This document shows positions 1-41,653 of a stretch of 46,354 nt of DNA, one piece after another. The DNA comes from Thraustochytrium aureum. Taxonomy: Eukaryota. The notes under the pieces were generated by a model. The model was not told the origin of the DNA. It made no database searches and saw nothing but the letters and a program-made list of their open reading frames with translations. Every line of letters starts with the position of its first letter. The stretch's first letter is position 1. The stretch is taken from the NCBI GenBank assembly GCA_012862495.1, contig BLSG01000100.1, forward strand, positions 1 to 46,354, given 5' to 3'. The position numbers and the translations under genes were made by a program.

Positions 1-742
1 TTCTGTACGTTCGTTCGCCGAGCCGTCATCTCCAGCGTCTCTGCGTGAGTAGGCGCGCGCGAGGTCGACGCGGAGAGCATGTTGTCTTGCAAACGCTGGC
101 GGCGACGGCAAGGCACCGGGAGGAAGCGATCAGTGGTAGTAGACAGGATGAAGGCTCCAGAAGAAAGAAAGCCATGTTGTTTTCCAAACCAGTCGTCACG
201 TTGTGGTTGCCATATGTCCGCGAGCCGGCCCATGGCTATGACAGAGCCCGCTACTCGAGTTCTGTGGAGTACTTGCGAGTTCTTTTTGTTGACGCGGAAA
301 ACCTGTCCTCGGACATTGTGGCTTGCGAGCACTGGCAATGTTGGAACAGCAGTCTAACTGATCGCTCGAATATCTGTGGCACGGAGCCTACCTTTGGCGC
401 TCGCTGCGAGCCAGAACTGGACGTCAGACTGTGGCCCAGGGGCTACCTCTGGCGCTCGCTGCGAGCCTGGACAGGACGTCAGCTCGCGCTCGAGACGACT
501 CAACGTTCCTGGCCTTCTCTACTTAGCTCTAGTAGAGAGCTACTGGCGAAAACACGGATGTATCCGTTAGGCGCGGCGATTGGAGGTGCAGGCCTTTTTA
601 TCGGTGCGGACGGCAGCGCGACGAACAGACACCGCTGGTGCCGGTTGCTGCGAGCGACTGCACAGCACAGGCGACAGCGCAGGGCCTAGCTTTGGCTGAG
701 CAGGGTTTGTAGGGGGCCGAAGCCGCGCGAGCTACAGGCACA

Positions 743-2263
743 ATGACACTTCACTGCTTTACGGTGATATTCTTGGCACAGCTCCCTTCGGCGGCCCTGA
801 CGCTGGCGTACGTGGTACGGCGGAATCAGCCGCTGGTTCAAGCTCGAGGCGTTACGCGGGCGTCGGTTATGATGGGCGTGGGGCTGATGCTTGTCGAGCA
901 GGCGTGCATGGAGATGGGCCTGTGCGAGTTGAAAGTTTACACGTTTGTACTTGCCTCGTTCGCTTTGAGCGGCGTCTACTTGACCCTCTGTGGCGCCACG
1001 TGGATGGCGGTGAGGATCTTCCTGCGATACCACAAGGTCCAGCACGGAAAACTCATTGCTGCAGCGATGTTTACGGGGAGCAAATTTGGCGACAGTTTGA
1101 TGACGGATGGCCAAAGCTCCATCGCAGATTGCGAATCCGGGGAGTTTGGAGATTTGACTGACGGCCCTAGCAGAGCTCATCCATTCCTCGCTAAGATCGA
1201 GCGCATCGCTGCGGTCCTGCGGAACCGCAAGCTTCAGGTACTGTGCTTGGTGAGCTATTTCCTCGCGCTGGCAGGGAACGGGTATGCGGCGTTGCAGTCA
1301 AACTCAAATGGGCTTCAAACGGTCTGCATCGGCACCGACTGCATGAAAGAGAAAGTACTTCTGATGTTTCTCGTCGGTTTTGCGGTCTCCAGTATAATCC
1401 CGCTCGTGCCCTTGATGCTTGCAATCGTGGGCCTTCGTCTTTGCTACAAGCACATCGGATCGGACTCGCTTGGCATCAGGGAGCACTTTCGTCTGTTGGT
1501 GTGGCTCTTGGGGCTTTCGCAGAGCGTCATATTTGGTGCTCTGGTCTTGAATTTGCTCGAAGTCATCACGCCGGAGGAGACGGTCCGGGCCGCTCTTGCG
1601 GGAACGATCGCGTTCCACTTTGGTGTGCTGGGCGAACCGCTCGTGCGTGACTATATCTTCACGAGGAAACACAAGCTTGACGTGGACACGTTACGGGACA
1701 AGTCGCAGGCCGCTTTGCTGCATCACTTCCTGCAGGACCCCAAGCACCTTGCACTTTTCCAGGAGCACCTTGAAAGCGAGTTTGCAGCAGAGTCGATCCT
1801 GTTTTACAAGAACGTGATGAACTACAAGCGCGTCGCTGGACGTCCAACGACGGCAGAGAAGCGAATCAAGTCGGTATACGACAGTATCGTTGACTCGTTT
1901 TTGCGCGTCGGCGCGCCGCAAGAGATAAACGTCCCAGAGGCGCTCGTTCGCCCATTTCGGGAATTTGAAGGCGAAAAAAAAGCCGGAAAACGTGCGAAGA
2001 TTGCTCCAAAAGACGCGGTTCCGGTCGAATCGACGCTAAGCGCTTCCTCGTCGTCTTCGAGAATCGTGTTGTGGCGGACGACGCCAGACCACTTTGACAA
2101 GCTGCTTGAAGAGGTAACGAACATCATGGCAATGGAGCCGCTGTCTCGGTTTGTCGCCACGCCAAAGTACCTGCCAACATGGGAAGCTTTCGAGGCACAG
2201 GTGCGCGAGTCAGAGGTCGTCAAGCAGGAGATCCGCGAGCTCCAGGCAGCTGCGGTCACATAG
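743..2263 (+). CDS. 7TM-RGS protein (seven-transmembrane domain fused to a C-terminal RGS domain)
   Basis: 506-aa ORF with about 7 hydrophobic segments and the loop motifs RRNQPLVQARG and DSLGIREHF typical of 7TM-RGS proteins. The RGS box follows: LLHHFLQDP..LFQEHLESEFAAESILFYKNV...IVDSFLRVGAPQEINVP...MEPLSRF. Confidence 0.85.
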   Translation: MTLHCFTVIFLAQLPSAALTLAYVVRRNQPLVQARGVTRASVMMGVGLMLVEQACMEMGLCELKVYTFVLASFALSGVYLTLCGATWMAVRIFLRYHKVQHGKLIAAAMFTGSKFGDSLMTDGQSSIADCESGEFGDLTDGPSRAHPFLAKIERIAAVLRNRKLQVLCLVSYFLALAGNGYAALQSNSNGLQTVCIGTDCMKEKVLLMFLVGFAVSSIIPLVPLMLAIVGLRLCYKHIGSDSLGIREHFRLLVWLLGLSQSVIFGALVLNLLEVITPEETVRAALAGTIAFHFGVLGEPLVRDYIFTRKHKLDVDTLRDKSQAALLHHFLQDPKHLALFQEHLESEFAAESILFYKNVMNYKRVAGRPTTAEKRIKSVYDSIVDSFLRVGAPQEINVPEALVRPFREFEGEKKAGKRAKIAPKDAVPVESTLSASSSSSRIVLWRTTPDHFDKLLEEVTNIMAMEPLSRFVATPKYLPTWEAFEAQVRESEVVKQEIRELQAAAVT

Positions 2264-8390: not shown

Positions 8391-11300
8391 ATGAAGGGCC
8401 GCGCGTCCGCTACGTGCCCTGGGTCCGTTGTGGTGGCCCTGCAAGCGCCCGTTCTGATCCTGGTCGCGTTCATTGGTTTTGGCGGGATGGCGACGCTCTT
8501 CGCGCTGCCGTTCTTCGACCTCAGCGAGCCGCTGGCAGGCCTCCGACTCGTGCACGACTCCGTCGCAGAAAAGGCCGACGCTTTCGTGATGGGCGTAATA
8601 AACTCGAGCGCCGTCTGGGACGAGCTGAACGGCAACAGCGGCGACGTCAAGGAGATCACGCAATCCAACCAGCACCACTGCCTGACCACGCTCTACGTCG
8701 CGCACGGCAACGACGAAAAGATGAAGCTCAAAGAGGAAGAGCGTGTCTACGGCAACGTCTACACCCCAGAAGGGATCCAGCGCATGCGCAAACTCGAGGA
8801 GGACATCCTTTCTCTGCCCGGCCTGAGCGGCGTGTGCCATGTCAACCCCAACACCGGCTTTTGCAACGGGTGGGACTCTATCCTCAACTTTCTCGACCTG
8901 GACCGCGTCGCGACGCAAGGAGATATCGACCAGCAACTTGCACAGCTCTGGCCGCCCGGAAAATCTACGCCGCTTCTTCCACCAGTCCTTTGACGGCGTC
9001 ACCCAGCTGGCGTCAAACATGACGCGCAGTGACCTGTGCTTTGGCCTTCCCCTCCCGGGTTTCTTCAACGGGAACGACCGGCGGAGCGAGCAAGAGGAGC
9101 TCGTTGACGCATGGATCGAGAGCAGCGGGCTGGCGGACTTTCTGTTGAACGCGTACGAAAACGCGGAAAGCGGCGTCACAGTGTACTTCAACCAGCGGTA
9201 CTTGGAAGACAAGATCACCAAGGCGATCCTCGGCGAGGACGTCATGCGCTGCGTCTTCGCCGTTGTAGTTGTGCTGCTGATCATGGTTGGGCACATGCGC
9301 AGCTTTTTCTTGGGCTCGCTCGCGCTACTGCAGGTCCTGCTCAGCTTTCCGATCGCGTTTTTTGCCTACCGCATTCTCATCGGAATCGAGCTGTTCGGCG
9401 GCTTGCAGAGTGTGGCCATCTTTGTCGTGCTCGGAGTCGGCGCCGACGACTGCTTCATTTACGTTGACGCCTTCAAGCAGTCGCTGCAGTTCGCTTGCTT
9501 GCAGGAGTGGGACCTGGAGCGCCGCCTCAGCTTCGCCTACAAACGGGCTCGCTTCACCATGTTTGTCACGACCATGACTACGGGCTTTGCTTTCCTCATG
9601 CTGGCCATCTCAAGCATCCCTACAGTGCGCTATTTTGGCGTCTTTGCCTCGATCCTCATCGTGCTCAACTTTTGCTTGGTCCTTACCATGTACACGTGCG
9701 TCCTCGTCGTTTGGGACCGCTACATCCGCAGGCTGCACCTGAAGCGGGGCGTCTCTCTCTGCGGCGCATGGAGGCGGCCAGCAGCCGTTGAGGGCAAAGA
9801 CGACCAAGCCAGCAGCCCCAAGCTCGCTGCACTAAAGGAAGACCAAGCGCAAGATGCCGACGATCAGAGCAGCCAGGTCGACGACGAACCCGCCCCAACC
9901 TCCAAGAGTGTCAACGAGGGCGAGGAGGCGGACGCAGACNNNNNNNNNNNNNNNNNNNNNNNNNNNNNNNNNNNNNNNNNNNNNNNNNNNNNNNNNNNNN
10001 NNNNNNNNNNNNNNNNNNNNNNNNNNNNNNNNNNNNNNNNNNNNNNNNNNNNNNNNNNNNNNNNNNNNNNNNNNNNNNNNNNNNNNNNNNNNNNNNNNNN
10101 NNNNNNNNNNNNNNNNNNNNNCTCTTGGGGCACAGCGTTGCGCGAGGCGTTTGCCAACGCGATGGCCATGTTCTTTGTTTACGAGGAGGACGAGATCGAC
10201 CCCGATGCCGTCGACGCCCTCTCCGTTGCGTCTGGGGGCCGCCTGAGCCTTGGCCGCCCGGCGCCCGACCTGGAAGCGACGGCCTCCTCGGCCGTTTTGG
10301 CCGCCAACAGCTCGAAAGAGACCGCCCGACCGCGATCACGCGACGCAGTGGCGTTGGCAAGCCCCGCTCCCTTTCTCGCAGAGGTCACCAAGCGCTCCCC
10401 GGCGCCGGCGCAAGAGTTTAACCGCGTCGTTCGAGTCCTCACAGAGAGGAACTCGCGACGAGCCATCATGGCCGTTTTTGGCGTCATTGCCATCGTCACG
10501 CTCGGGTTTGCGACCAAGCTGGAGGTCGCCAGCGAAGAAAACCCGTTCTGGCCCGAGCGCCACTTCTTCTGGTGGTACCGGCGCCTTGTCCCAGACCAGT
10601 TCCACGACGCCTCCGACCGACCGCGCAAGACGTTCCATATCGTGCATGGGCTCGCCGACCCCTTCTCGAACCGAACAGGGACCAAAGAGACCGTCAAGGA
10701 GGACTTTGGCGCTCCGATCTACGATCCGAATTTCTCGCTCGCCGACCCGAACGCCCAGCAGTTCCTTGTTGACGTCTGCCGCAGCGCGTACGAGGCAGAC
10801 TTCAACCTGCACCTTTCTGGCAACGGCGAGTCCTCAGCGCGCTGCTTCATGGTCGCACTCGAGCTATGGCGCCAGGCTAGGAACGAGTCCTTCCCAATCC
10901 CGCCGAGCGAGTATGTTGCCCCAGTTCTCAATGTGGCCGCCCCGCGCGAGGCGGCGCGCTCGCACGACTCCTTCGAGGACGTCCTCGTCGATTTTGCCTC
11001 CCGCGCGCAGTTTCAGCCAGCGCGCTACCAGGTTGGCTTGAACTACAACCGCGGGGCCAACCTGTCTCGCCTCGCCGTCAACTTCGCCTTCCAGTCGTTC
11101 AGTACCGACCTCGACTGGGAGGACGCTTTCAAGACGCGGATCCTCGTCGCTGAGCAATGGGACGCTTTCGAGGCCTCGCTGCGCGCGGCTGTACCCGAGC
11201 CCACGGAGGACGAGGTCAGTCGCGGCGGTCTTGGCGACCCCAACAATATGTTCTATACCGAGTGGGACTACTTTGTGCTGATGAAGACGCAACTGCTCTT

Positions 11301-13707
11301 CCTGCAAAACAGCTTTAGCAGCCTTGGTCTCTCCACCGTGCTAACGCTCATCTTCCTGTTCGTGGCAACGCGGAACTGGCGCGTCACCCTGCTCGCCGGG
11401 GTCTGCATCGGCGGCATCTCGGCCACCGTGCTCGGCTTTGTGGTCATCGTCGGCTGGAAGCTGGACACGATCATCAGCGTCAGCATTACGCTCCTCGTCG
11501 GCTTTGTCGCAGACTACACCGTCCACCTCGCTGTCGCGTACGACGAGGCTTTCCGCGAAAAGGCCCTCTTTGACCGCGCCTCCAAAGTCGACCACGTCGT
11601 AAACACCATGTCGATTTCGATTGCGGCTGGTGCTGCTTCCACGTTTGGGGCCTCGGTTATGCTCTTCCCCACCACGATCCGTTTCTTCCAGCAGTTTGGC
11701 GGCTTCCTCAGCCTCGCTGTTGCGACCGCGTTTACTTGGTCGCTCGTTTTCTTCCCAGCGCTTCTTGCCGCCTTTGGGCCAGACGGGTCAGACGGCCGCA
11801 TCCTCGCGCGTTGCGAGACCGACCGATCGATCGGCCTGTACGACCTGCGATACCACGAGCCGCGTACGCGCCGCGGCAAGCGACTCGCTCTGCTCGTCGC
11901 TGGGTTCGTCATCGTTGCCGCGTACATTGCATCCATTTTCGGCTTTGCATACCGCACGGGGGCGCTGTTCTTCGAGCAAGAAGTGGCCGCGCCGCCGCCG
12001 GTTGTCTCCGTCTGGCCAGATGTCGGCGTCCCAAGTGTGAGCCAGCTCGACCCTGGCCGCTGGTACAGGATCACCCCGGGTGGTGGCGCGGTTTGCGCGC
12101 GGGGCGAGCCCTTCTCGTTCTTCGTCAAGCGGGCCACCGTGCCAGACGCGGAGCTCGTGCTTCAGTTCGACAGCGGCAACGTGTGCTGGAACTTTGCCAC
12201 CTGCCGAGCCGAGCGACGGCTGATCAGGGACACCGTTGGCTTCGCAGAGGCTTCGTTCCGCAAGTCTTTCCTCGGGGAGGGTCAGAGGCAGGGTCTTGCA
12301 GACCCGGAGGGCCCTCACAGCGCCTCGCACGTTGTGTTCGTGCCCCTCTGCACAGCGGACTACCACTGGGGCAACAACACGAAAGACTATGGCAGCGATG
12401 TCGTCATTCATCACAAAGGCGCGGTGAACAGTCTCAGTGCGCTACGCTGGACGCTGGCCGAGCTCGATGATATGGACGTGTCCAGTGTGTTGATGACGGG
12501 ATTAGACTCGGGGTCCTACGCATCGCTCCTGTACTCTACCGTTGTCGCCTCGTGGCTCGAGTTTACTGGCCGCGATGACATTCGTTTTGTCCACCACGGG
12601 GACTCGGGGATGGGTCTTTTTGCGCCAGACTTTCTCCAAGCAGCCGTAGACTCGTGGGGGGTGCGCGTCGACAAGACCATGATCCCAATCGCTATCAATG
12701 GGACGGTGGTTGAGGTGCCAATCTGGCTCCTCAACCCCGACGGCATGGCCGATTTCTTCAACCTGACGCGCCAGTTCAACTTTACCCAGCTCAACGAGTG
12801 TCTGGAAGGCCAGGCTAACACCACACTGTCTCGGGAGGAAATCGTTGATCTCTTTTTCGGCGGAGAGCGGTCCGCGCTGATTGAGTCCTGTACAAACGCG
12901 ACGTTCGGCTCAGATGGATTTTGGGACATTTTCGACGGTGCACCAATTGTAATCGGCGCGGACGACCTGGGCCTTGGAGGCTCCAACGGCGGCTCTGGTG
13001 GAGCTGGGGGCTCCGGCGGCGGTGGTGGTGGCGGCGGCGGCGGAACGAACGGCACGAGCGGGACTGGCCCAGTCGACTGGCCCGAGATTCCGTGGGAGGA
13101 GTGGGTCAAACAGACTTGCGGAAACCTGTCGTTAACCGAGTTCAACCTCACGGGAACACCGGAGGACAATGCAGGCCTGATTGACGTCGGCGACTTGGCC
13201 GCTTGCTTGAACTTTACTTTGCCCAACAACTTTACAGGTTTCCAGCCGGGAGACTTTTTATTCGACGGAACCAACCCTCTGCAGCTCATCCCGTCACTGT
13301 ATCTGCTGTCGGCGCTGCGTTTCCGCAGGCACGCCTTTTCGCAGTTTTCGTCCGCTTACGACTACGAGGCAACGCGCAATCTTGCCGTTCAATATCTCGG
13401 GGACGTGGTGCCAGGGGTGACAATTAACGAGCAGCGGCTGTACCACGACGTGCTCACCCTACTGTACGACATCTACTTGCCGCTCATGCCACGCAACTAT
13501 CACCACTTTCTCTGGCACGGCGACACACACGGCCATCTGGACTGGGACCGGCACTATCGCGTTGTCAACAACTCGCTGTATCAGAGCATCGTTGGATGGT
13601 CTACCGGTCTCTCCACGGAGCGCTTACCACACTCCTGGGACTGCCGCATCGAAGGGGAGCGCTGTTTGGTTGGCGTGGACGAGCGCGTGCAGCCAGAGTA
13701 CTTTTGA
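8391..13707 (+). CDS. Dispatched/Patched-family RND (sterol-sensing) transporter fused to a C-terminal pectinacetylesterase/Notum-like domain; apparent frameshift at ~8950 and an internal N gap
   Basis: ORF 8391-8993 (TM1 plus loop) joins ORF 8839-13707. TM4 motif IFVVLGVGADDCFIYVDAFKQ, motif TMFVTTMTT, TM10 motif GFVADYTVHLAVAY, and a second TM bundle. An extra TM is followed by WYRITP..AVCARGEPFSFFVK..QFDSGNVCW..TC, VFVPLCTADYHWG, HHKGAVN and HGDSG. The start codon is uncertain. Confidence 0.85.
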
Positions 13708-14223
13708 AGGGGTGGTTGTTGATGCAGGGTACGCCTGGGTCGCGTTCCCACACGCACGACTGCCAAGACGCGGAATGAAGCGATCTTGCTGGCCCTGAGG
13801 GCGTGAGCTTGGGTAGTGCCAGGCTGGAGAGCGTAGCGTGGTCGTTCGCAAGCACGCAAGAGGATCTGTCTCTAGCTCCAGTAGAGAGAGCGGAGTCGCA
13901 AGAGCGACTTGGTCTTTCCTTGGTTTGAAATTGCAAGAGCAAACAGACGCCATGACGATCATCGAGATAGGTATCCGGATGGCTTGTGCTGCTCTGGCGC
14001 GATGAGATCAAAAGGAAAAGAAAATAGATCCCTCTCTATNNNNNNNNNNNNNNNNNNNNNNNNNNNNNNNNNNNNNNNNNNNNNNNNNNNNNNNNNNNNN
14101 NNNNNNNNNNNNNNNNNNNNNNNNNNNNNNNNNNNNNNNNNNNNNNNNNNNNNNNTGGCGCGATGAGATCAAAAGGAAAAGAAAATAGATCCCTCTCTAT
14201 ATACTCTGGTACCCCTGGGGTTC

Positions 14224-14305
14224 GTTTCGGCGGGGGCGAAACCTCAGCAGCGTGCCTCGAGCGCGGTAGAGCTCGTTTCGGCAGGCTGTGTCATTGGCCG
14301 GAAAC
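14224..14305 (-). promoter_or_regulatory. Eukaryotic type II SECIS element in the 3'UTR of the RGS-TM gene
   Basis: The minus strand reads GTTTCCGGCCA-ATGAC-ACAGCCTGCCG-AAA-CGAGC-TCTACCGC-GCTCG-AGGCACGCTGC-TGAG-GTTTCGCCCCC-GCCGAAAC. AUGA is at 14294-14291, followed after 12 nt by AAA (14278-14276). There is a 5-bp apical mini-stem, helix II pairs CAGC/GCTG and TGCC/GGCA, the 3' UGAG is at 14246-14243, and helix I pairs GTTT(C)CGGC/GCCGAAAC. Folded by eye. Confidence 0.8.
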
Positions 14306-14345
14306 CACGCGAGCGACACCCAAAGGACTTTCAGCATCTGGCTTG

Positions 14346-15318
14346 CTACGGAATGAGCAAGATGAAAACCATGACCACAATGTCAAACATGCACGCGAAC
14401 GCCATCATCTTCCGGGCGCGTTTCCGGAGGAGAATCCGAAGCGCTGGGTTCAGCTCTGCGTGCTCCTCAGATTTTCCAGGAACCCGACAGTGCTTTCCAA
14501 CGCTCAAGCAAGGTCGTCAAACGCTGTGGCGCGTCTCGCAGGACAGTCAGAAAGTGTGCGCATGCGGTACAAATCCATATCAACCACGCCTGCAAAGCAA
14601 AAGAGCAAACCCTACTCACCGGTCGACTGACGCGGATATTCTTCGCGGCAGCCGCGTATCAGACGCGAAAAAGCGCAGAGAACAAGTACGAACTGCCAGT
14701 GTGAAGCGGCAGCAGAAGCACGAGACGCAACGCGAACGGTGCCCCGAAATGCTTCATTGCTGCAAAGAGTGCCCCCGCCAGAAGAAACCAGATCAAGGAG
14801 AACGGAATCCTCGCGCAGGCCACAGACTTGGGGATATTGTAGCTGCCTAGGTCCTCAATAAATCGCGGGAACGCGTCGATTTCAATGCTCTCTTCCACCT
14901 CGCTCTGCGCCGCTTCGAAAAGGAGCGGGTCGGTGTGTTGCTTGGCCTTGCCCAAGACCTGCGCCCGCGTAGCGGAGTTTATGTTGACCTCGTGCTCGGC
15001 CCCGGGCTCGACAAACTCTTTCACAATGATGTCGCGCATCGTCGTGGCGTCCGTGGGAGTGCTAACGCTTGCTGCGCACAGCTGGCCGCGGAGCCCACAC
15101 ACATAGTTGGGGTCGGCCGCCATGCGAAACGACTCAGCGGCGTCCCAGAACAAAATACCCTCTTCCGCTTGCTCGTCCTCCAAGAACCTCTGCAGCTCCT
15201 GTTTGAGTCCGGGCGGCGAGTCTCGCAGCACTTCCTTGAGGCGGAGGTCGAGGGCCCAGGCATTTGGTGCGTGCTGCTTCCGCGCACTGGCATCCGCAGG
15301 GTGTACTTGCCAGCCCAT
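14346..15318 (-). CDS. RGS domain plus three C-terminal TM helices (Rax1-like architecture); candidate selenoprotein with in-frame UGA at 14661-14659
   Basis: RGS box LKEVLRD..ELQRFLEDEQAEEGILFWDAAESF...EFVEPGAEHEVNINSATR...LFEAAQSEVE..DAFPRF, then two TMs, then FRV-TGA-YAAAAKNIRVSRP. A probable 96-nt intron lies at 14619-14524, followed by RLTTLLERWKALSGSWK. After a +1 indel at the A-run (14475-14472) the frame reads SEEHAELNPALRILLRKRARKMMAFACMFDIVVMVFILLIP-TAG. The first in-frame ATG is at 15318. Confidence 0.8.
14524..14619 (-). other. Probable spliceosomal intron (96 nt)
   Basis: Donor CCG|GTGAGT, CTGAC branch-site motif about 25 nt before the acceptor, and acceptor CACAG|CGT. It is phase 0, a multiple of 3, and contains no stops. 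Confidence 0.65.
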
Positions 15319-15698
15319 CTCGTCCACCAGCGGGGCGAGCGCCGCCCCGCGCCGATCGTCCACGAGGATGGAACGGGTACTGCGCTGCCATGCGCGACTT
15401 TACTGAGTTGGGGAAACCGATGGAACACCTGCCCGACCGAGTTCCTGTCCGTTGAAGAGCGGCAGCAGCTCACGAGTCTCTCGCTGCTTCGCTTTAGTGA
15501 GCAGCGCTGACGTCGTCAAACTCCAGGAACTCGACAACGGATACCGCACAGTTGCCACACTGCAGAGAAAACGGGATGTTCGCAACACTCAACGGCTCGC
15601 AAGCCGAACTGTTTCGCGCCTTTTCTAAAGGAATCTAGCGTAGTAGTGGCTCTGAGCTCAGCTCAAGAGCTCGAGCGGTGCGGGGTTCGTTGACTCGG

Positions 15699-16571
15699 TC
15701 AGCCCAGCGCCGGCTTCATGTACATTTTGAAGAACGATGCGCTGCGCGACGTCGTCACGTTGCGCTCGATGAAAATCGGCGGCGTGCTCATGCTCTGCTT
15801 TGCCGACGTACTGTTGATCTGCTTGTACAAGAAGGCGAGCTTGTCCATCCGCTCCCGAGAGTCAAACGAGTCGTATTGGCTCCGTAGCTTGTCAAGGCGC
15901 TTCATGCGCGCTGTAACAAGCGGGAAGTCTTGAGCGCGCTCCTCGTCGTCCAGGATACGGGCGAGCGGCCGAGACGGAGCGACGACAAGCGTCTGGCTCC
16001 AAGGCTCCTTTGTCGCTGGGGTGCTCCGTGGGAGCATGGAGAACTCGACCTTGCGCTCGGCAGAGTCGGTGTCTTGGAATTGCGGGGAGTACCCGTACCC
16101 GTACGCCCCGTACGTAAAGTATATCTCGAGAGAGACGTTGCCGACGGGGCGGTGGCACTTGAGCACAGAGAAGGACCCCGCCGACGGCGCGCCCTTGACG
16201 AGATCATGCACGTGAAAGGGCACGGATCCTAATACATACTCGGAGTTGTGAATTGCCACATTGAAGGGGACGTGATGTGGCGCAGCAATAATGTCGACTT
16301 GGAATAGATTGAACGGGTGGCGCGGGTCGCGGATCACACGAAGTGGAAAGTATGCCATCTCGCCCCACGCGAGTCGCGACCCCCAGCGCTTGGCGTTCTC
16401 CGTGTACTTTGTGATGTTGCGAACGCGCAAGCGCGCGAATACAAAGGCGTCCTTCTCTGTCGCCTCGCGCACGTCGGCCGAGACAACCTTGACGGCAAGA
16501 ACGCCGCTCACGAGCGGAAAGGCGTTCTCGCCGTCCAGGAGCTCGGCGACCTGCTTTGCGGCCTCGGCCTC
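15699..16571 (-). CDS. C2-domain protein resembling C2CD6/ALS2CR11 (CatSper-tau); 5' end in N gap
   Basis: C2-like strands GVLAVKVVSA..FVFARLRV..KYT..LAWGEMAYFPL..VLGSVPFHVHDLV..VGNVSLEIYF, followed by TYGAYGYGYSPQ, which resembles the post-C2 motif I recall for the C2CD6 family. Confidence 0.6.
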   Translation of the reverse strand, partial: EAEAAKQVAELLDGENAFPLVSGVLAVKVVSADVREATEKDAFVFARLRVRNITKYTENAKRWGSRLAWGEMAYFPLRVIRDPRHPFNLFQVDIIAAPHHVPFNVAIHNSEYVLGSVPFHVHDLVKGAPSAGSFSVLKCHRPVGNVSLEIYFTYGAYGYGYSPQFQDTDSAERKVEFSMLPRSTPATKEPWSQTLVVAPSRPLARILDDEERAQDFPLVTARMKRLDKLRSQYDSFDSRERMDKLAFLYKQINSTSAKQSMSTPPIFIERNVTTSRSASFFKMYMKPALG

Positions 16572-17502
16572 NNNNNNNNNNNNNNNNNNNNNNNNNNNNN
16601 NNNNNNNNNNNNNNNNNNNNNNNNNNNNNNNNNNNNNNNNNNNNNNNNNNNNNNNNNNNNNNNNNNNNNNNNNNNNNNNNNNNNNNNNNNNNNNNNNNNN
16701 NNNNNNNNNNNNNNNNNNNNNNNNNNNNNNNNNNNNNNNNNNNNNNNNNNNNNNNNNNNNNNNNNNNNNNNNNNNNNNNNNNNNNNNNNNNNNNNNNNNN
16801 NNNNNNNNNNNNNNNNNNNNNNNNNNNNNNNNNNNNNNNNNNNNNNNNNNNNNNNNNNNNNNNNNNNNNNNNNNNNNNNNNNNNNNNNNNNNNNNNNNNN
16901 NNNNNNNNNNNNNNNNNNNNNNNNNNNNNNNNNNNNNNNNNNNNNNNNNNNNNNNNNNNNNNNNNNNNNNNNNNNNNNNNNNNNNNNNNNNNNNNNNNNN
17001 NNNNNNNNNNNNNNNNNNNNNNNNNNNNNNNNNNNNNNNNNNNNNNNNNNNNNNNNNNNNNNNNNNNNNNNNNNNNNNNNNNNNNNNNNNNNNNNNNNNN
17101 NNNNNNNNNNNNNNNNNNNNNNNNNNNNNNNNNNNNNNNNNNNNNNNNNNNNNNNNNNNNNNNNNNNNNNNNNNNNNNNNNNNNNNNNNNNNNNNNNNNN
17201 NNNNNNNNNNNNNNNNNNNNNNNNNNNNNNNNNNNNNNNNNNNNNNNNNNNNNNNNNNNNNNNNNNNNNNNNNNNNNNNNNNNNNNNNNNNNNNNNNNNN
17301 NNNNNNNNNNNNNNNNNNNNNNNNNNNNNNNNNNNNNNNNNNNNNNNNNNNNNNNNNNNNNNNNNNNNNNNNNNNNNNNNNNNNNNNNNNNNNNNNNNNN
17401 NNNNNNNNNNNNNNNNNNNNNNNNNNNNNNNNNNNNNNNNNNNNNNNNNNNNNNNNNNNNNNNNNNNNNNNNNNNNNNNNNNNNNNCGAGCGACCAGCAA
17501 GG

Positions 17503-19015
17503 ATGCAGGCCATCCATGTGTTTGAAAGTTACCAGAAGGCGCGGCAGACGTTTGCTCAGTCCGTGGCCGACATGGCTTCTCGGCCGCAGAACATAGAGTT
17601 TCTGCAGAACGCGGGCGTGATGCAGCTGCTGAGGCCGCTGCTCCTCGACAACGTGCCGAGCATCCAGCAGACCGCGGTCGCTTGCGCTGGGGCGGCTGGC
17701 CAACTATTCGGACGACCTCGCGGAGGCGGTCGTGTCGAACGACATCCTGTCGCAGCTGGTCACGTCGTTGTCGGAGCAAAACCGGTTCTACAAAAAGGCG
17801 GCTGCCTTTGTGCTCCGGTCGGTGGCCAAGCACTCGCCCGAGCTGGCGCATGCCGTGGTGGACGCCAGCGCGCTTGGCTCGCTGTGCAACTGCCTCGAGG
17901 AGTTTGACCCGAGCGTCAAGGAGGCTGCGGCATGGGCGATTGGGTACATTGCCGGGCACACGTCTGAGCTGGCCACCGCGATCGTCGACTCGGGCGCAGT
18001 CCCGCTGCTGATCCTGTGTATCCAGGAGCCCGAGCTGTCGCTCAAGCGCATCTGCGCTTCGGCGCTGTCGGACATTTGCAAGCACTCGCCGGAGCTCGCG
18101 CAGGCCGTCGTGGACTGCGGCGCAGTGCCGTACCTGGCGCCGCTAATCTCGCACAACGACGCCAAACTGAAACGGCAGGCGTGTGGTGCTCTGGCGCAGA
18201 TCGCCAAGCACTCGGTTGACCTTGCCGAGATGGTGGTGGAGGCAGAGATCTTCCCGAACATCCTAACCTGCCTGCAGGACGACGACACGTATGTCCAGAA
18301 GAACGCGGCGACCTGCATCCGCGAGGTGGCCAAGCACACCCCAGAGCTTGCCAAGTTGATCGTCAACGCGGGCGGCGCGGCGGCGCTCGTCGACTACGTT
18401 GCCAACTCGAAGGGCAACATCCGGCTGCCGGGCATCATGGCGCTGGGGTACATTTCGGCCTTTTCCGAGACGCTGGCCCTCGCCGTGGTCGTCTCCAAGG
18501 GCATCGAGCCGCTCAAGGACGCGCTCATCCACGAACCGGAGGACCACATCAAGGCCGCGGCGGCTTGGTCGCTTGGCCAGGTGGGTCGCCACACGCCAGA
18601 CCACGCCCAGGCCGTGGCCGAGGCGGACGTGCTCCGGCGCCTGCTCGCTGTGTACATGTCGGTGGACAGCTCGGAGGACCTCAAGGTCAAGGCGAAGCGG
18701 GCGCTCAAGGCGATTCTGAAAAAGTGCACCGCGCTCGGCGCTCTGGAGCCGCTTATGCGCGAGGCGCCGACCAACATTGTCAAGTACATTCTGGCGCAGT
18801 TTGCCAAGGTGCTCCCGAACGACCGCGTGGCCAAGCGGTCGTTCGTTCAGTCGGGAGGCCTCCAGATGGTGCAGGAGCTCAACGAGACGGTCGGCGCGGA
18901 GCTCGCCGAGTCGATCCAGGCCATAAACGCGTGCTACCCGCCCGAGATTGTCGAGTACTACTCGCCCAAATATGCGGACAAACTGATGCAGATGATCGAC
19001 GACCCGTCCGAGTGA
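17503..19015 (+). CDS. SPAG6: Sperm-associated antigen 6 / PF16 axonemal central-apparatus armadillo-repeat protein; one extra base at ~17678
   Basis: VFESYQKARQTFAQSVADMASRPQNIE..LLRPLLLDNVPSIQQTA in one frame, continuing LALGRLANYSDDLAEAVV..SLSEQNRFYKKAAAFVLRSVAKHSPELA..CLEEFDPSVKEAAAWA...CYPPEIVEYYSP in the next frame. Confidence 0.95.
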
Positions 19016-37919: not shown

Positions 37920-40900
37920 TTACCGGCCGTTCCCATCGGAAGGTCCTCGAATGATCGGGAGGTCGCGGCCCCTGCGTCGCTGGCGCGACTGCCGAAAGCT
38001 GTCTGTGACTGCGTCGCCGTGGTTTGCGGGCGTTTGCGATGCGTCGCTCTCCGCCGTCGCCAGCTTGGCGGCAGTCGTCCCGGCTGGTCCACCCGTCGAG
38101 CGCCCACTGTCCATCTTTGTCTCCGCGCCTTGGCGCTGGTGCGTCTTGTACGACCAGACGCTCACCTTCTCCATGTCCCAAACACCATCCCAGTCCGGGT
38201 GGCTGAAACCGCCATTCTCGAGGAGATGGCAGCAACGGTCTTCGAAGAGAACCGAGGGCGCATCGCCGAGGTCTGCAGCTCGCTCGAAGATCTTGAATGC
38301 GCCGTGGATATCCTTGGCGCGATAGACGCGTAACCCGTCTTTGTACTCTCGCAAGGCGCTGATTTTCTCCGGCGACGCCACGTCGGAGAGCCTCTTGGCA
38401 AAGCCCAGTACCTCAAAAAGACGCGTGACATCGTCTTTGCCTGCGACACGCACCACATCGACCTCGCGAAGGAACAGACGCGGCTCTGCCGCCTCCGTAC
38501 ACTCCTCTGTGAAATCGCTTGCTTCCATCTGGTCGAGAACGACAACCGGAGCGCCGCAGTCGACCAAGTCTCGGTACGTGGAATCGCTGACCAAGTTGGA
38601 GAGTCCGTACTCTTTGGTGCTCGACTCAAGCCTGGAAGCCACGTTCACTGCGTCGCCGATTACGGTGTACTCGAACCGGTTTTCCGATCCAATGTTGCCA
38701 CTGTACACTTCGCCCGTGCTCACGCCCACGCCAATCTTGATTGCCGGTTTCCCCGTTGCAGCGCGCCCCTCGTTAAACCGAGCCAGCTCGTACTCCATCG
38801 CAACCGCCGCCTTGCAGGCGTTCGTCGAGTCTTGAGGAGTGGCATTGGGCACGCCAAAGACTGCCATGAGCGCATCCCCGATAAACTTGTCCACAATCCC
38901 GCCATGCTTGGTGATGACCTCGACCATGCAGGAAAAGTACTCGTTGAGCGTCTGGAAAACCTCAGAGGGCCCCACCTCCTCGCTGAACGTTGTAAATCCG
39001 CGGATGTCGGAGAACAAGATGCTCACCTTTTGCTTGGTGCCGCCGAGCTGGAGTTTTTCCGTCTTGAGTCAAAAGATGGTGCACGATGTCTGGGGCGAGG
39101 TACTTGTTGAGCGTCTGCTTGAGCTTTTGCTCTGGCGTTTTGTCGTCAATGCAGAGCACGGCGCCAAGGAGCCGCTTCTCGTCATCTTCCAGGAATACAT
39201 GCGCGTTCGACTCGACGTTGTCCGCGATGTTGAGCGCGAAGATCGACTCGTCCCTGTTGATCCCGAGCCTGCTCGCGGGCCCCTGCGGCCTGGAAGGCGC
39301 ACTGGTGGACGACGACGACGCGCTTCCGATGGCCGCCAGGCTGTTGTTTAGTCCAGGGGCAGAGGCGAAGGGCGTGCGCCCGCCTTGCCACGCGCGCTCA
39401 GTTTGGACTCTGCTCACCTCGGACGAGGAAATGTCGAACGGAAACTCGCTCGAGAGACCAGACGAGCTCCGCAACGACGCGCTCCGCACCTCCCCAAGTT
39501 GAACGCCGCCTGTCTTGCACTGGAGACGCACTAGGTCGTCAAAGCTCGTGCCCACGCCGACGAGCGGCTTGATCGTGTAGTTGACAATGTGGGCTGTGTT
39601 GCTGACAAGGTAGTCGGATCGCACGACCCCAATATCTGCCATTTTGTCCGGCGAGCAGTTGTTGGACTTGGCCAAGACCGACCGCAGCTCGTGCCCATAT
39701 TTTGATCCGGCAGCCAATCCATGACGGCCTCAGTCCTCATGCGCTCCGCAGACACGGGCGTCTCGGCGCCGAACAGCGCGTTGATAGCCCGGCTCCCGCG
39801 ATTGCTCCCCATCAGCATGCCGTTGCGGTCCACCGTGATGACGACCTCAGAAACATTGTCCAACACGCACTTGAGCCGGTTCTGCACAATGAACGCTTGC
39901 GAAAAGAGGTCCATGTTTGAGATGGTCACTCCCAGCATGGAAAACATGCCCCAAAGCAGGCGCTCGTCGTCCTCGTCAAAGCTCAAGTCCCGATTGCTCC
40001 CTCCGTCGTATGCGACGCTTCCCTTGGACGGGTCGCGCAACGAAGCTGTCATCATGGGGGTGCCTTTCATTTTCATGGACGAATTGGGCCCCCCTCTGCC
40101 CTGTGTCTCTACGTCGTCCTCTTGGTCGTTTGCATCGGCGAATGTCTCGCTGCGCTTGTTGATCAGCTGGACGACAGCCACGACTTGGCCTCGCGAGTTT
40201 TTGATTGCCCCACAGAGGACTGACCGCGTGCGGAACTTTGTGGCGGTATCAACGTCCTTGTTGAAGCGCTTGTCGAGATAGGCGTCCTCGACGTTCACCA
40301 TCTCGCCCGTGCGCGCCACATAGCCCACAATGCCTTTGTCCATCGGCAGTGTGATGATCTCGTCGTTGTGCGCCGCTCCCCACTCTTGCGAGAAACTCTT
40401 GTCCACGGTCCACAACACCTTGTCGTTGTGGTTCACGAAAAAAACCGAGCAGCGCTCGGTGTGGAACGTCTCTTGGAGCTTGCAAATAATCATGTCGATC
40501 AGGGAATGTACGTCCAGTTGGGAGCCGAGCGAGACAGCCACGTCAAGCATTGCTTCTTTGCGCAACCTCTCCTTTCGCTCTTTGTCTCGCATTTTGGTAT
40601 GTGCGACGAACCCAGATACAATCGTCGCCACAGTTTCCAGAAGCGCCGTCTCCTCCTGCGAAAAGGGCGTTCCGTCAAGCTTGTTCATTACTTGGATAAC
40701 AGCCTCCACCTCCATGTGGGCTTGCGCCTCCATGCCCGCGCTTGGGAGTGGCGTGGACAAAGCCCTGCTACAGTCGACGGTAGCTCGTGGTGTATGCGAC
40801 TCGTCCTTGTCGCCCTCCTCGGCGATTGGACGTGCCAAGGAAGGGGCACCCTGGCCCGCCATGGTGCCCGGGTTTTGAACGTCGACACTGCTTCGGGGTT

Positions 40901-41653
40901 CTCCGGGCGAGTTGGTGCTGCCGCGGTGCATCGGCCAAAACCCCACAGGGATTGTCAACAACTGTTTGGTGCGGTACCTTGTCTTCTCATCGAGGAGGGC
41001 GCAGAATCGGCCGTCTTTGTATGCGTCGGGGACACTCACCGACACGCCGTTTCTTACAACCCAGCCCGCAATGCCTTTGTCGATTGGGATCGTCAAGGAT
41101 GCGTTGCTGTCAGTCGCCCGGAGGCCAGCCTGGCGGACGATCTGGACGCGAAGCAGCCGCTGCTCCTTGTCCACCATGTAGAGCACCGCGCGCTGGGCTC
41201 CAACAAGATCGCACACTGTGCGAATGAGGAAGGTGAACTGCGATCGCGAGTCGTGCCTCAGCGACAGCTCGCGCGCCAGCGTGTTGACCTGCAGCACACG
41301 TTTGAGTTGGATGAGCGATTCGCTCAGGAGGCCCTCGCGTCGCTGGTGATTTGGCCGCTCACGATTTCGCGCGCGTAAGCGGCGACTTCGGTGTTGGAGC
41401 TGTGCTCGACAAACTCGTGGAGTTTCTTGGCCTTCTCCGCGATGCGCGGGGAGCTGCGCGGCTCTGCCGGGGGGCTACCTATGTGCTGCGCATTGCGTTC
41501 GGCCTCAGTGCCACCCTCGCTGGCTGCCAAAGGGGAGGTTGGTTGCGTGCCATCGTCAGCGCCTGGTTGAAGCTTGCTCTTGCCGGAGAAGGTGCTGCTC
41601 GTCCATTTGCTGCTCGCGCCGTGTCCACCAGGCGCCGAAACAGCTCCACCCAT
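37920..41653 (-). CDS. GAF-GAF-PAS class III adenylate cyclase (CyaB-like) with a C-terminal TPR-like tail; three apparent frameshifts (~41360, ~39700, ~39056)
   Basis: Two GAF domains (DKGIAGWV..DAYKDGRF..MNK..PFSQEE; DKGIVGYVARTG..DAYLDKRFN..INK..FDEDDE) and a PAS segment (LDNVSEVVITVDRNG). Catalytic motifs ILFSDIRGFTTFSE, DKFIGDALMAVFG and EYTVIGDAVNVASRLE. Tail DRC..DWDGVW. N-terminus MGGAVS. Confidence 0.9.

Follow-up and report, generated by a model that had tools for sequence, protein, structure and literature searches.

A minus-strand gene on Thraustochytrium aureum contig BLSG01000100.1 carries an in-frame TGA at codon 220 that, judging from sequence, is very probably read as selenocysteine (Sec), which makes its product a putative Sec protein. 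We refer to the whole stretch of DNA analysed, 46,354 nucleotides in length, as the window. In the predicted protein, an RGS domain is followed by a three-helix membrane module, and the TGA sits directly after the second helix (Table 1). Sec recoding, the RGS domain and the three-helix module are each known. We found no description of the three in combination, and the protein is probably a new type of eukaryotic selenoprotein. The original prediction, a membrane-bound G-protein regulator with a juxtamembrane Sec, is supported in its overall interpretation.

Table 1. Features of the gene, in the order in which they occur along the minus strand.
Feature	Positions	Strand	Basis and remarks
Coding region	14346..15318	-	323 aa, read through the TGA and across a one-base break, unspliced; the true start may be 15391
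RGS domain, residues 27-156	14851..15240	-	Pfam PF00615, E 1.1e-17; 35 PDB RGS sequences at E<=0.01; weak Foldseek RGS matches
Membrane helices 1 and 2, residues 161-219	14662..14838	-	Ungapped alignment to the bacterial family
In-frame TGA, codon 220, predicted selenocysteine	14659..14661	-	Falls at the invariant Cys/TGA column
In-frame segment of 96 nt bearing intron-like signals	14524..14619	-	Unspliced in both (2/2) RNA-like contigs across it; its translation would be hydrophobic
Single additional base in the window	14473..14474	-	Relative to runs X1, X2 and X4, with a loose end of X3 in agreement; either an allele or an assembly error
Third hydrophobic helix, residues 303-323	14349..14411	-	Preceded by a basic stretch; corresponds to the last helix in the bacterial and fungal modules
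Type II SECIS-like element	14222..14307	-	AUGA 14294-14291; 10-bp upper helix with 2 mismatches; AAA 14278-14276; 5-bp ministem; GA 14245-14244

Reading frame and in-frame TGA

From the ATG at 15318, the reading frame runs to the TGA and, as anticipated from a first inspection of the sequence, continues in frame beyond it. It stays open for 103 further codons, up to a third helix that has homologs. There is an alternative ATG at 15391, one base out of frame, and the contigs of run X1 break at 15363-15366; with that start, about 24 residues may be added to the protein. Codon 220 has no partner Cys motif (CxxU or UxxC) beside it.

We compared the window with sequencing runs X1-X4 over the gene and with runs X2-X5 over 18.9 kb, where X5 has no coverage of the gene. 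Runs X1-X4 represent two studies, X1 being possibly the source of the window itself and X2-X4 coming from a single study. None of the runs is recorded as RNA; we presume that X2-X4 are, since their depth changes between gene units, over a range of 0 to about 300. All four runs have a contig across codon 220, and all four retain the TGA with no alternative letter. No splice joint appears in them at or near the TGA, so the codon is not spliced out. The original prediction also placed a homopolymer indel downstream. The window does carry an extra base there, while the frameshift that it causes is absent from X1, X2 and X4, which are one base shorter and have one further letter change adjoining, and a loose end of X3 is consistent with them. 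With one base fewer, the frame is restored and reaches the TAG at 14348-14346, and the basic stretch, hydrophobic helix and TAG expected at the C-terminus are confirmed.

SECIS-like element in the 3' UTR

In eukaryotes, a UGA together with a SECIS element in the 3' UTR specifies selenocysteine. In a candidate for such an element, the AUGA lies 51 nt past the TAG and 364 nt past the UGA. The candidate has, in order, the AUGA, 12 nt, the AAA, a ministem, and an upper helix closing on the GA. This is a type II layout in the terms of the accessible part of PMC13188914, where the features of a SECIS are AUGA, a GA quartet, AAR and two helices. A well-formed SECIS about 50 nt after the stop had been proposed: the distance and the AUGA, GA and AAA motifs hold, but "well-formed" slightly overstates the case, since the AA-to-GA spacing is 30-31 nt, helix I is weak, and Rfam gives no SECIS match. 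Because of that long apical part, our first pattern, with 14-29 nt from AA to GA, missed the element. The pattern was widened to 34 nt after this first miss, and it then finds two sites in the window, of which this one is the stabler (-18.7 kcal/mol). In shuffled versions of the UTR the widened pattern occurs in 2 of 5000, and in 23 when three mismatches are allowed. The folding z-score is -2.61 for the upper stem and only -0.7 to -0.9 for the element as a whole. The core motifs and the upper helix are present, in a pattern relaxed post hoc. Across the four runs there are no differences within the element, while in X2 a gap of 9 nt follows shortly after it. The second site, at +28990, was rejected: it lies on the strand opposite a 3' UTR, and in three runs an insertion overlaps it.

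A bacterial family with TGA or Cys at the same column

A degenerate pattern built on a sequence motif, in which TGA, TGC or TGT was allowed at the codon, recovers at least 120 bacterial loci. From 120 of these we left out two (L064 and L104, which are not family-like and both have Cys). The 118 loci listed form one family of about 115 aa, with TGA in 103 and Cys in 15, found in Gemmatimonadota, Chloroflexota, Myxococcota, Methylomirabilota and others. The profile of these 118 members aligns without gaps to residues 161-229 of the window protein, places codon 220 at the Cys/TGA column, and also matches the last helix. The score is 29.3 bits, whereas 2000 shuffles reach at most 8.3 and the reversed sequence gives -3.6; hhalign of the bacterial profile against the protein gives 79%, with an E-value of 1.6e-5.

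Several observations suggest how the bacterial TGA is used. Behind the codon, a hairpin of the bacterial SECIS type, with G at the start of its loop, occurs in 102 of the 103 TGA genes versus 7 of the 15 Cys genes among the loci listed. The selA gene, looked for in a test that covered 50 of the 118 loci, is present in 37 of the 39 genomes with a TGA locus and in 8 of the 11 with a Cys locus. When the codon is left unconstrained, a profile search of 151 genomes gives 15 matches, all 15 with a single internal TGA. Because TGA predominates (103/118), a hairpin stands behind the codon, and selA is present in most genomes tested, the stand-alone bacterial family is probably itself a selenoprotein family, one whose members gene callers would truncate. 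It is absent by name from the 2026 table of 119 prokaryotic selenoprotein families, which also has no YgaP-like or RGS entry (PMC13188914).

The predicted structure of the bacterial module (pLDDT 96.6) shows two helices, then a short helix that begins with the Cys, next a small hairpin, and finally a third helix. Fold searches with this model give no clear match (best Z 6.7), and neither does a sequence search of the PDB. An Atlas look-up of a Cys member returns unnamed clusters only. For the 42 bacterial members scanned, no NCBIfam model fits, with weak scattered matches only. Among 7998 candidates, the bacterial profile finds no protein of 224-2000 aa, which is weak evidence; the fungal fusions described below came to light by another route. 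One bacterial member, L021, has no stop and runs into further membrane-protein-like sequence, a possible fusion.

RGS domain and fungal relatives

The RGS domain that had been proposed is present, with a PF00615 score of 65 bits against a cut-off of 23.9. In an alignment to RGS18 and RGS10, the RGS motifs are retained except for a Gly in place of Asn in the EEN motif. Five positions, E87, N88, N128, D163 and R167 in RGS4 numbering, we take to be contacts of the G-alpha interface. Four of them are retained in the same alignment, the exception being the EEN Asn.

The layout of an RGS domain with three C-terminal helices has been described for Rax1/MoRgs3 and MoRgs6 in the accessible text of PMC3248559 and PMC9506272. 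A second motif identifies 117 loci in metagenomes, mostly of one fungal-type family, in which the codon at the column is TGC in 80, TGT in 37 and TGA in none. All four members tested have an RGS domain. For the fungal-type module profile, 41 of the 117 loci were left out as short, duplicate or chance matches. A search with the end-to-end alignment gives 181 proteins, of which 120 are listed, and among these the named ones are ascomycete except for one labelled as plant; no sequence named Rax1 is among the matches listed. All 120 listed proteins have Cys at the column. Together with the bacterial TGA, this bears out the earlier statement that homologous modules carry Cys at this position.

The expected RGS-plus-three-helix layout is common, end to end, to the window protein and the ascomycete family. 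In both, the RGS domain comes immediately before the module, nearly without a linker. In an end-to-end alignment with 12 fungal proteins, C220, R229, R232, P233, W281 and P323 are kept, at an identity of 17-21%. The bacterial profile scores a median of 22 bits on the listed fungal proteins. The fungal module profile alone gives 6.0 bits for the window protein, and the best of 2000 shuffles gives 7.4. As this is no better than shuffles, it is the bacterial profile, the layout and the global alignment that support the fungal link, and we take the window protein as a distant relative of the fungal family, not as a member. A pooled bacterial-fungal profile gives 27.3 bits, compared with 14.1 for the best of 3000 shuffles. 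In a tree of 41 rows, the window protein lies on a long branch outside both the bacterial and the fungal groups; as its placement is unsure, we claim no donor and no order of events.

In the fungal loci L121, L162, L215, L220 and L229, the open frame starts just before the conserved Cys. This suggests an intron boundary right at the conserved Cys codon in several fungal loci.

The proposed intron

An intron after the TGA was part of the original prediction. The 96-nt segment at 14619-14524 does have donor, branch-like and acceptor signals, and it is in frame and stop-free, yet the two RNA-like contigs reaching across it (X2 and X4) are both unspliced. Its third-position GC is 0.56, compared with 0.62-0.76 in the flanking coding parts, and its translation is hydrophobic, unlike the polar loops of the fungal proteins; both features favour an intron. 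The spacer from the Cys to the last helix is 70 residues unspliced and 38 spliced. In the fungal family it ranges over 56-109 and is mostly 67-73, which the unspliced length fits better, and this counts against the intron. Since runs X2-X5 have no GT..AG joint anywhere across 18.9 kb, splicing here has no positive control. We regard use of this intron as rather doubtful. The frame does not need it, and the prediction of Sec is independent of whether it is used.

Searches for other eukaryotic members

In these searches, this locus is the only TGA-bearing eukaryotic member found. A word-based single-sequence search gives no related sequence among 577 candidates. A phmmer search of 1.84 billion representatives gives no relative; its single match, a repeat protein, was rejected as unrelated. 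Searches of metagenome contigs, viral contigs and plasmids also give no relative. There is no tRNA gene within the window.

New eukaryotic selenoprotein families are rare. In the literature covered, which leaves subscription journals largely outside, we found no RGS-domain selenoprotein family. "RGS" is absent from the main text of the algal selenoprotein survey PMC7539508, and is not mentioned in the accessible part of the fungal survey 10.1101/314781. In the portions at hand, these two surveys and PMC13188914 name mostly thioredoxin-fold or other redox enzymes, and no RGS domain.

Proposed role of the Sec residue

The most probable account of codon 220 is that the UGA would be decoded as Sec by means of the SECIS-like element in the 3' UTR. 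The RGS domain would be cytoplasmic, and the two helices would return residue 220 to the same side of the membrane. In a predicted model of residues 1-281 (pLDDT 68), the helical hairpin is well predicted. Exchange between Sec and Cys is usually a sign of a working redox residue, and the single invariant Cys/Sec would then be the reactive residue of the module. Oxidation, an electrophile or a metal at the selenol would change the presentation of the RGS domain by the module. In this way the state of the Sec may tune the adjoining RGS brake on G-alpha, for which the kept RGS motifs suggest GAP activity. A shortage of selenium would lead to termination at the UGA and to a product of 219 aa that lacks the third helix. 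For a redox- or metal-tuned RGS GAP acting through a membrane-proximal Sec, we consider the chances evenly balanced. We are slightly less confident, just short of even, of a broader history in which an ancient three-helix sensor, a selenoprotein in bacteria, became fused to RGS in eukaryotes, with Sec here, inserted through a eukaryotic SECIS, and Cys in the fungal proteins, whose invariant Cys would be a redox or metal switch. Here the selenium supply would set the form of the regulator.

If true, this would place Sec within a G-protein regulator, and would give one site with Sec under two unrelated insertion systems, a bacterial hairpin and a eukaryotic UTR element. Sec/Cys exchange as a marker of redox function also singles out one residue for testing, both in a fungal RGS family that is widespread and in the bacterial family. 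The membrane part of the fungal family has no assigned chemistry in the accessible text of PMC3248559 and PMC9506272.

Alternative explanations

A different role for the same residue is possible, though we do not favour it. Here Sec is also inserted, as in the best explanation, but it serves the membrane module itself, in thiol/selenol redox, in the handling of sulfur, selenium or metal, or in a YgaP-like subunit contact, with the RGS domain acting as a scaffold or polarity tag and not as a GAP under redox control. The bacterial module stands alone and has no conserved neighbour within 500 nt, the commonest shared neighbour occurring at 5 loci. A weak YgaP-like match is present in 7 of 42 bacterial members, and the YgaP-like domain of E. 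coli is described, in the part of PMC4730233 available, as the membrane portion through which a sulfurtransferase dimerises. Rax1, of similar layout, functions in bud-site selection according to the accessible text of PMC9506272, and the Gly in the EEN motif also fits a domain used in this way. Against it, the remaining RGS motifs are kept, the RGS domain and the module are joined almost without a linker in both the window protein and the fungi, and the Cys is present in every one of the fungal fusions listed (120/120).

It is unlikely that the TGA is a true stop. A Cys codon would have mutated to a stop, leaving a decaying gene or a shortened RGS protein with two helices, and the hairpin would be due to chance or a relic of Sec use. 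TGA is one base away from TGC and TGT, Cys is found in all eukaryotic relatives detected, and Rfam does not recognise the hairpin. However, a stop would leave to chance the 103 further open codons to a homologous third helix and a SECIS-type pattern, rare in shuffles, just past the TAG. It also has to contend with a column that is TGA in most bacterial members, and with an element free of differences in four runs, in contrast to the gap just past it in X2.

Very unlikely is a selenium-free read-through, in which leaky termination or a changed code would insert Cys or Trp. With Cys the eukaryotic norm at the column, a product of Cys read-through would work. But TGA terminates 5 of the 9 other long ORFs in the window, so there is no general recoding, and no TGA interrupts the ORFs of 400-1600 codons; nor would this reading account for the SECIS-like element. 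Finally, although other one-base indels do separate the window from the runs, a sequencing or assembly error at the TGA, or its removal by splicing, is hardly credible with the codon in four of four runs and no joint at or near it.

Comparison with known systems

The putative Sec protein resembles several known systems in part. The ascomycete RGS-three-helix proteins share its layout, with an N-terminal RGS followed by the same module, and the position of the Cys column and the spacer length fit. They differ in having Cys where the window gene has TGA and a SECIS-like element, and in their low identity to it; the window protein also lacks their long RGS insert and branches outside the fungal group. 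The bacterial three-helix family shares the ungapped 69 residues, the column and the last helix. Unlike the window protein, its members are small and stand-alone, have no RGS, and have a much shorter loop, and their hairpin follows the codon immediately where the window gene has an element in the 3' UTR.

The YgaP-like domain (PF11127, formerly DUF2892) also has a helical hairpin and then a Cys. The best of its weak matches to the bacterial members has an E-value of 7e-4, and the window protein has no Pfam match to it. YgaP itself has two helices fused to rhodanese, in the available part of PMC4730233, whereas the window protein has three helices fused to RGS.

Amongst eukaryotic membrane selenoproteins, SELENOK, SELENOS, SELENOT and MSP, as covered in the main text of PMC7539508, have a UGA with a 3'-UTR SECIS, are membrane-bound, and carry Sec near the membrane. 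The window protein has no Pfam match to them, a distinction drawn from Pfam and not from the MSP or "Hypo" sequences, and it may be akin to the MSP or "Hypo" families. The 7TM-RGS proteins (AtRGS1, Naegleria; the accessible text of PMC9283941) offer a model of how such a protein could work, since their membrane part is thought to sense a cue and control the RGS GAP. They have seven helices before the RGS, in contrast to three after it, with a predicted Sec, in the window protein.

Neighbouring genes and assembly quality

The gene lies among long intron-free ORFs, next door to a PF16-like armadillo protein. The same-strand upstream gene at 15699-16570 (minus strand) has a weak Pfam hint (CTSRT, E 0.03) and close matches in X5. 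Converging on the studied gene from the other side, 8827-13707 (plus strand) is a 1626-codon intron-free Patched/sterol-sensing-domain protein with a long C-terminal part without a Pfam match. Between the two, at 13995-14200, an identical 45 nt is found on both flanks of the N gap at 14040-14155, which is therefore probably an overlap artefact. One-base indels between RNA-like contigs and the window are found at 17489-19015, 24572 and 29740, and the split PF16-like ORF is among those affected; their presence in other genes indicates an indel-prone assembly. At 37920-41474 (minus strand), a GAF-GAF plus nucleotide cyclase gene extends across two frames, and it is probably one gene with an assembly frameshift. 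A second RGS protein is encoded at 713-2263 (plus strand), whose N-terminal half is long and hydrophobic and whose RGS domain is C-terminal (PF00615, E 7e-13), a layout like that of the 7TM-RGS proteins.
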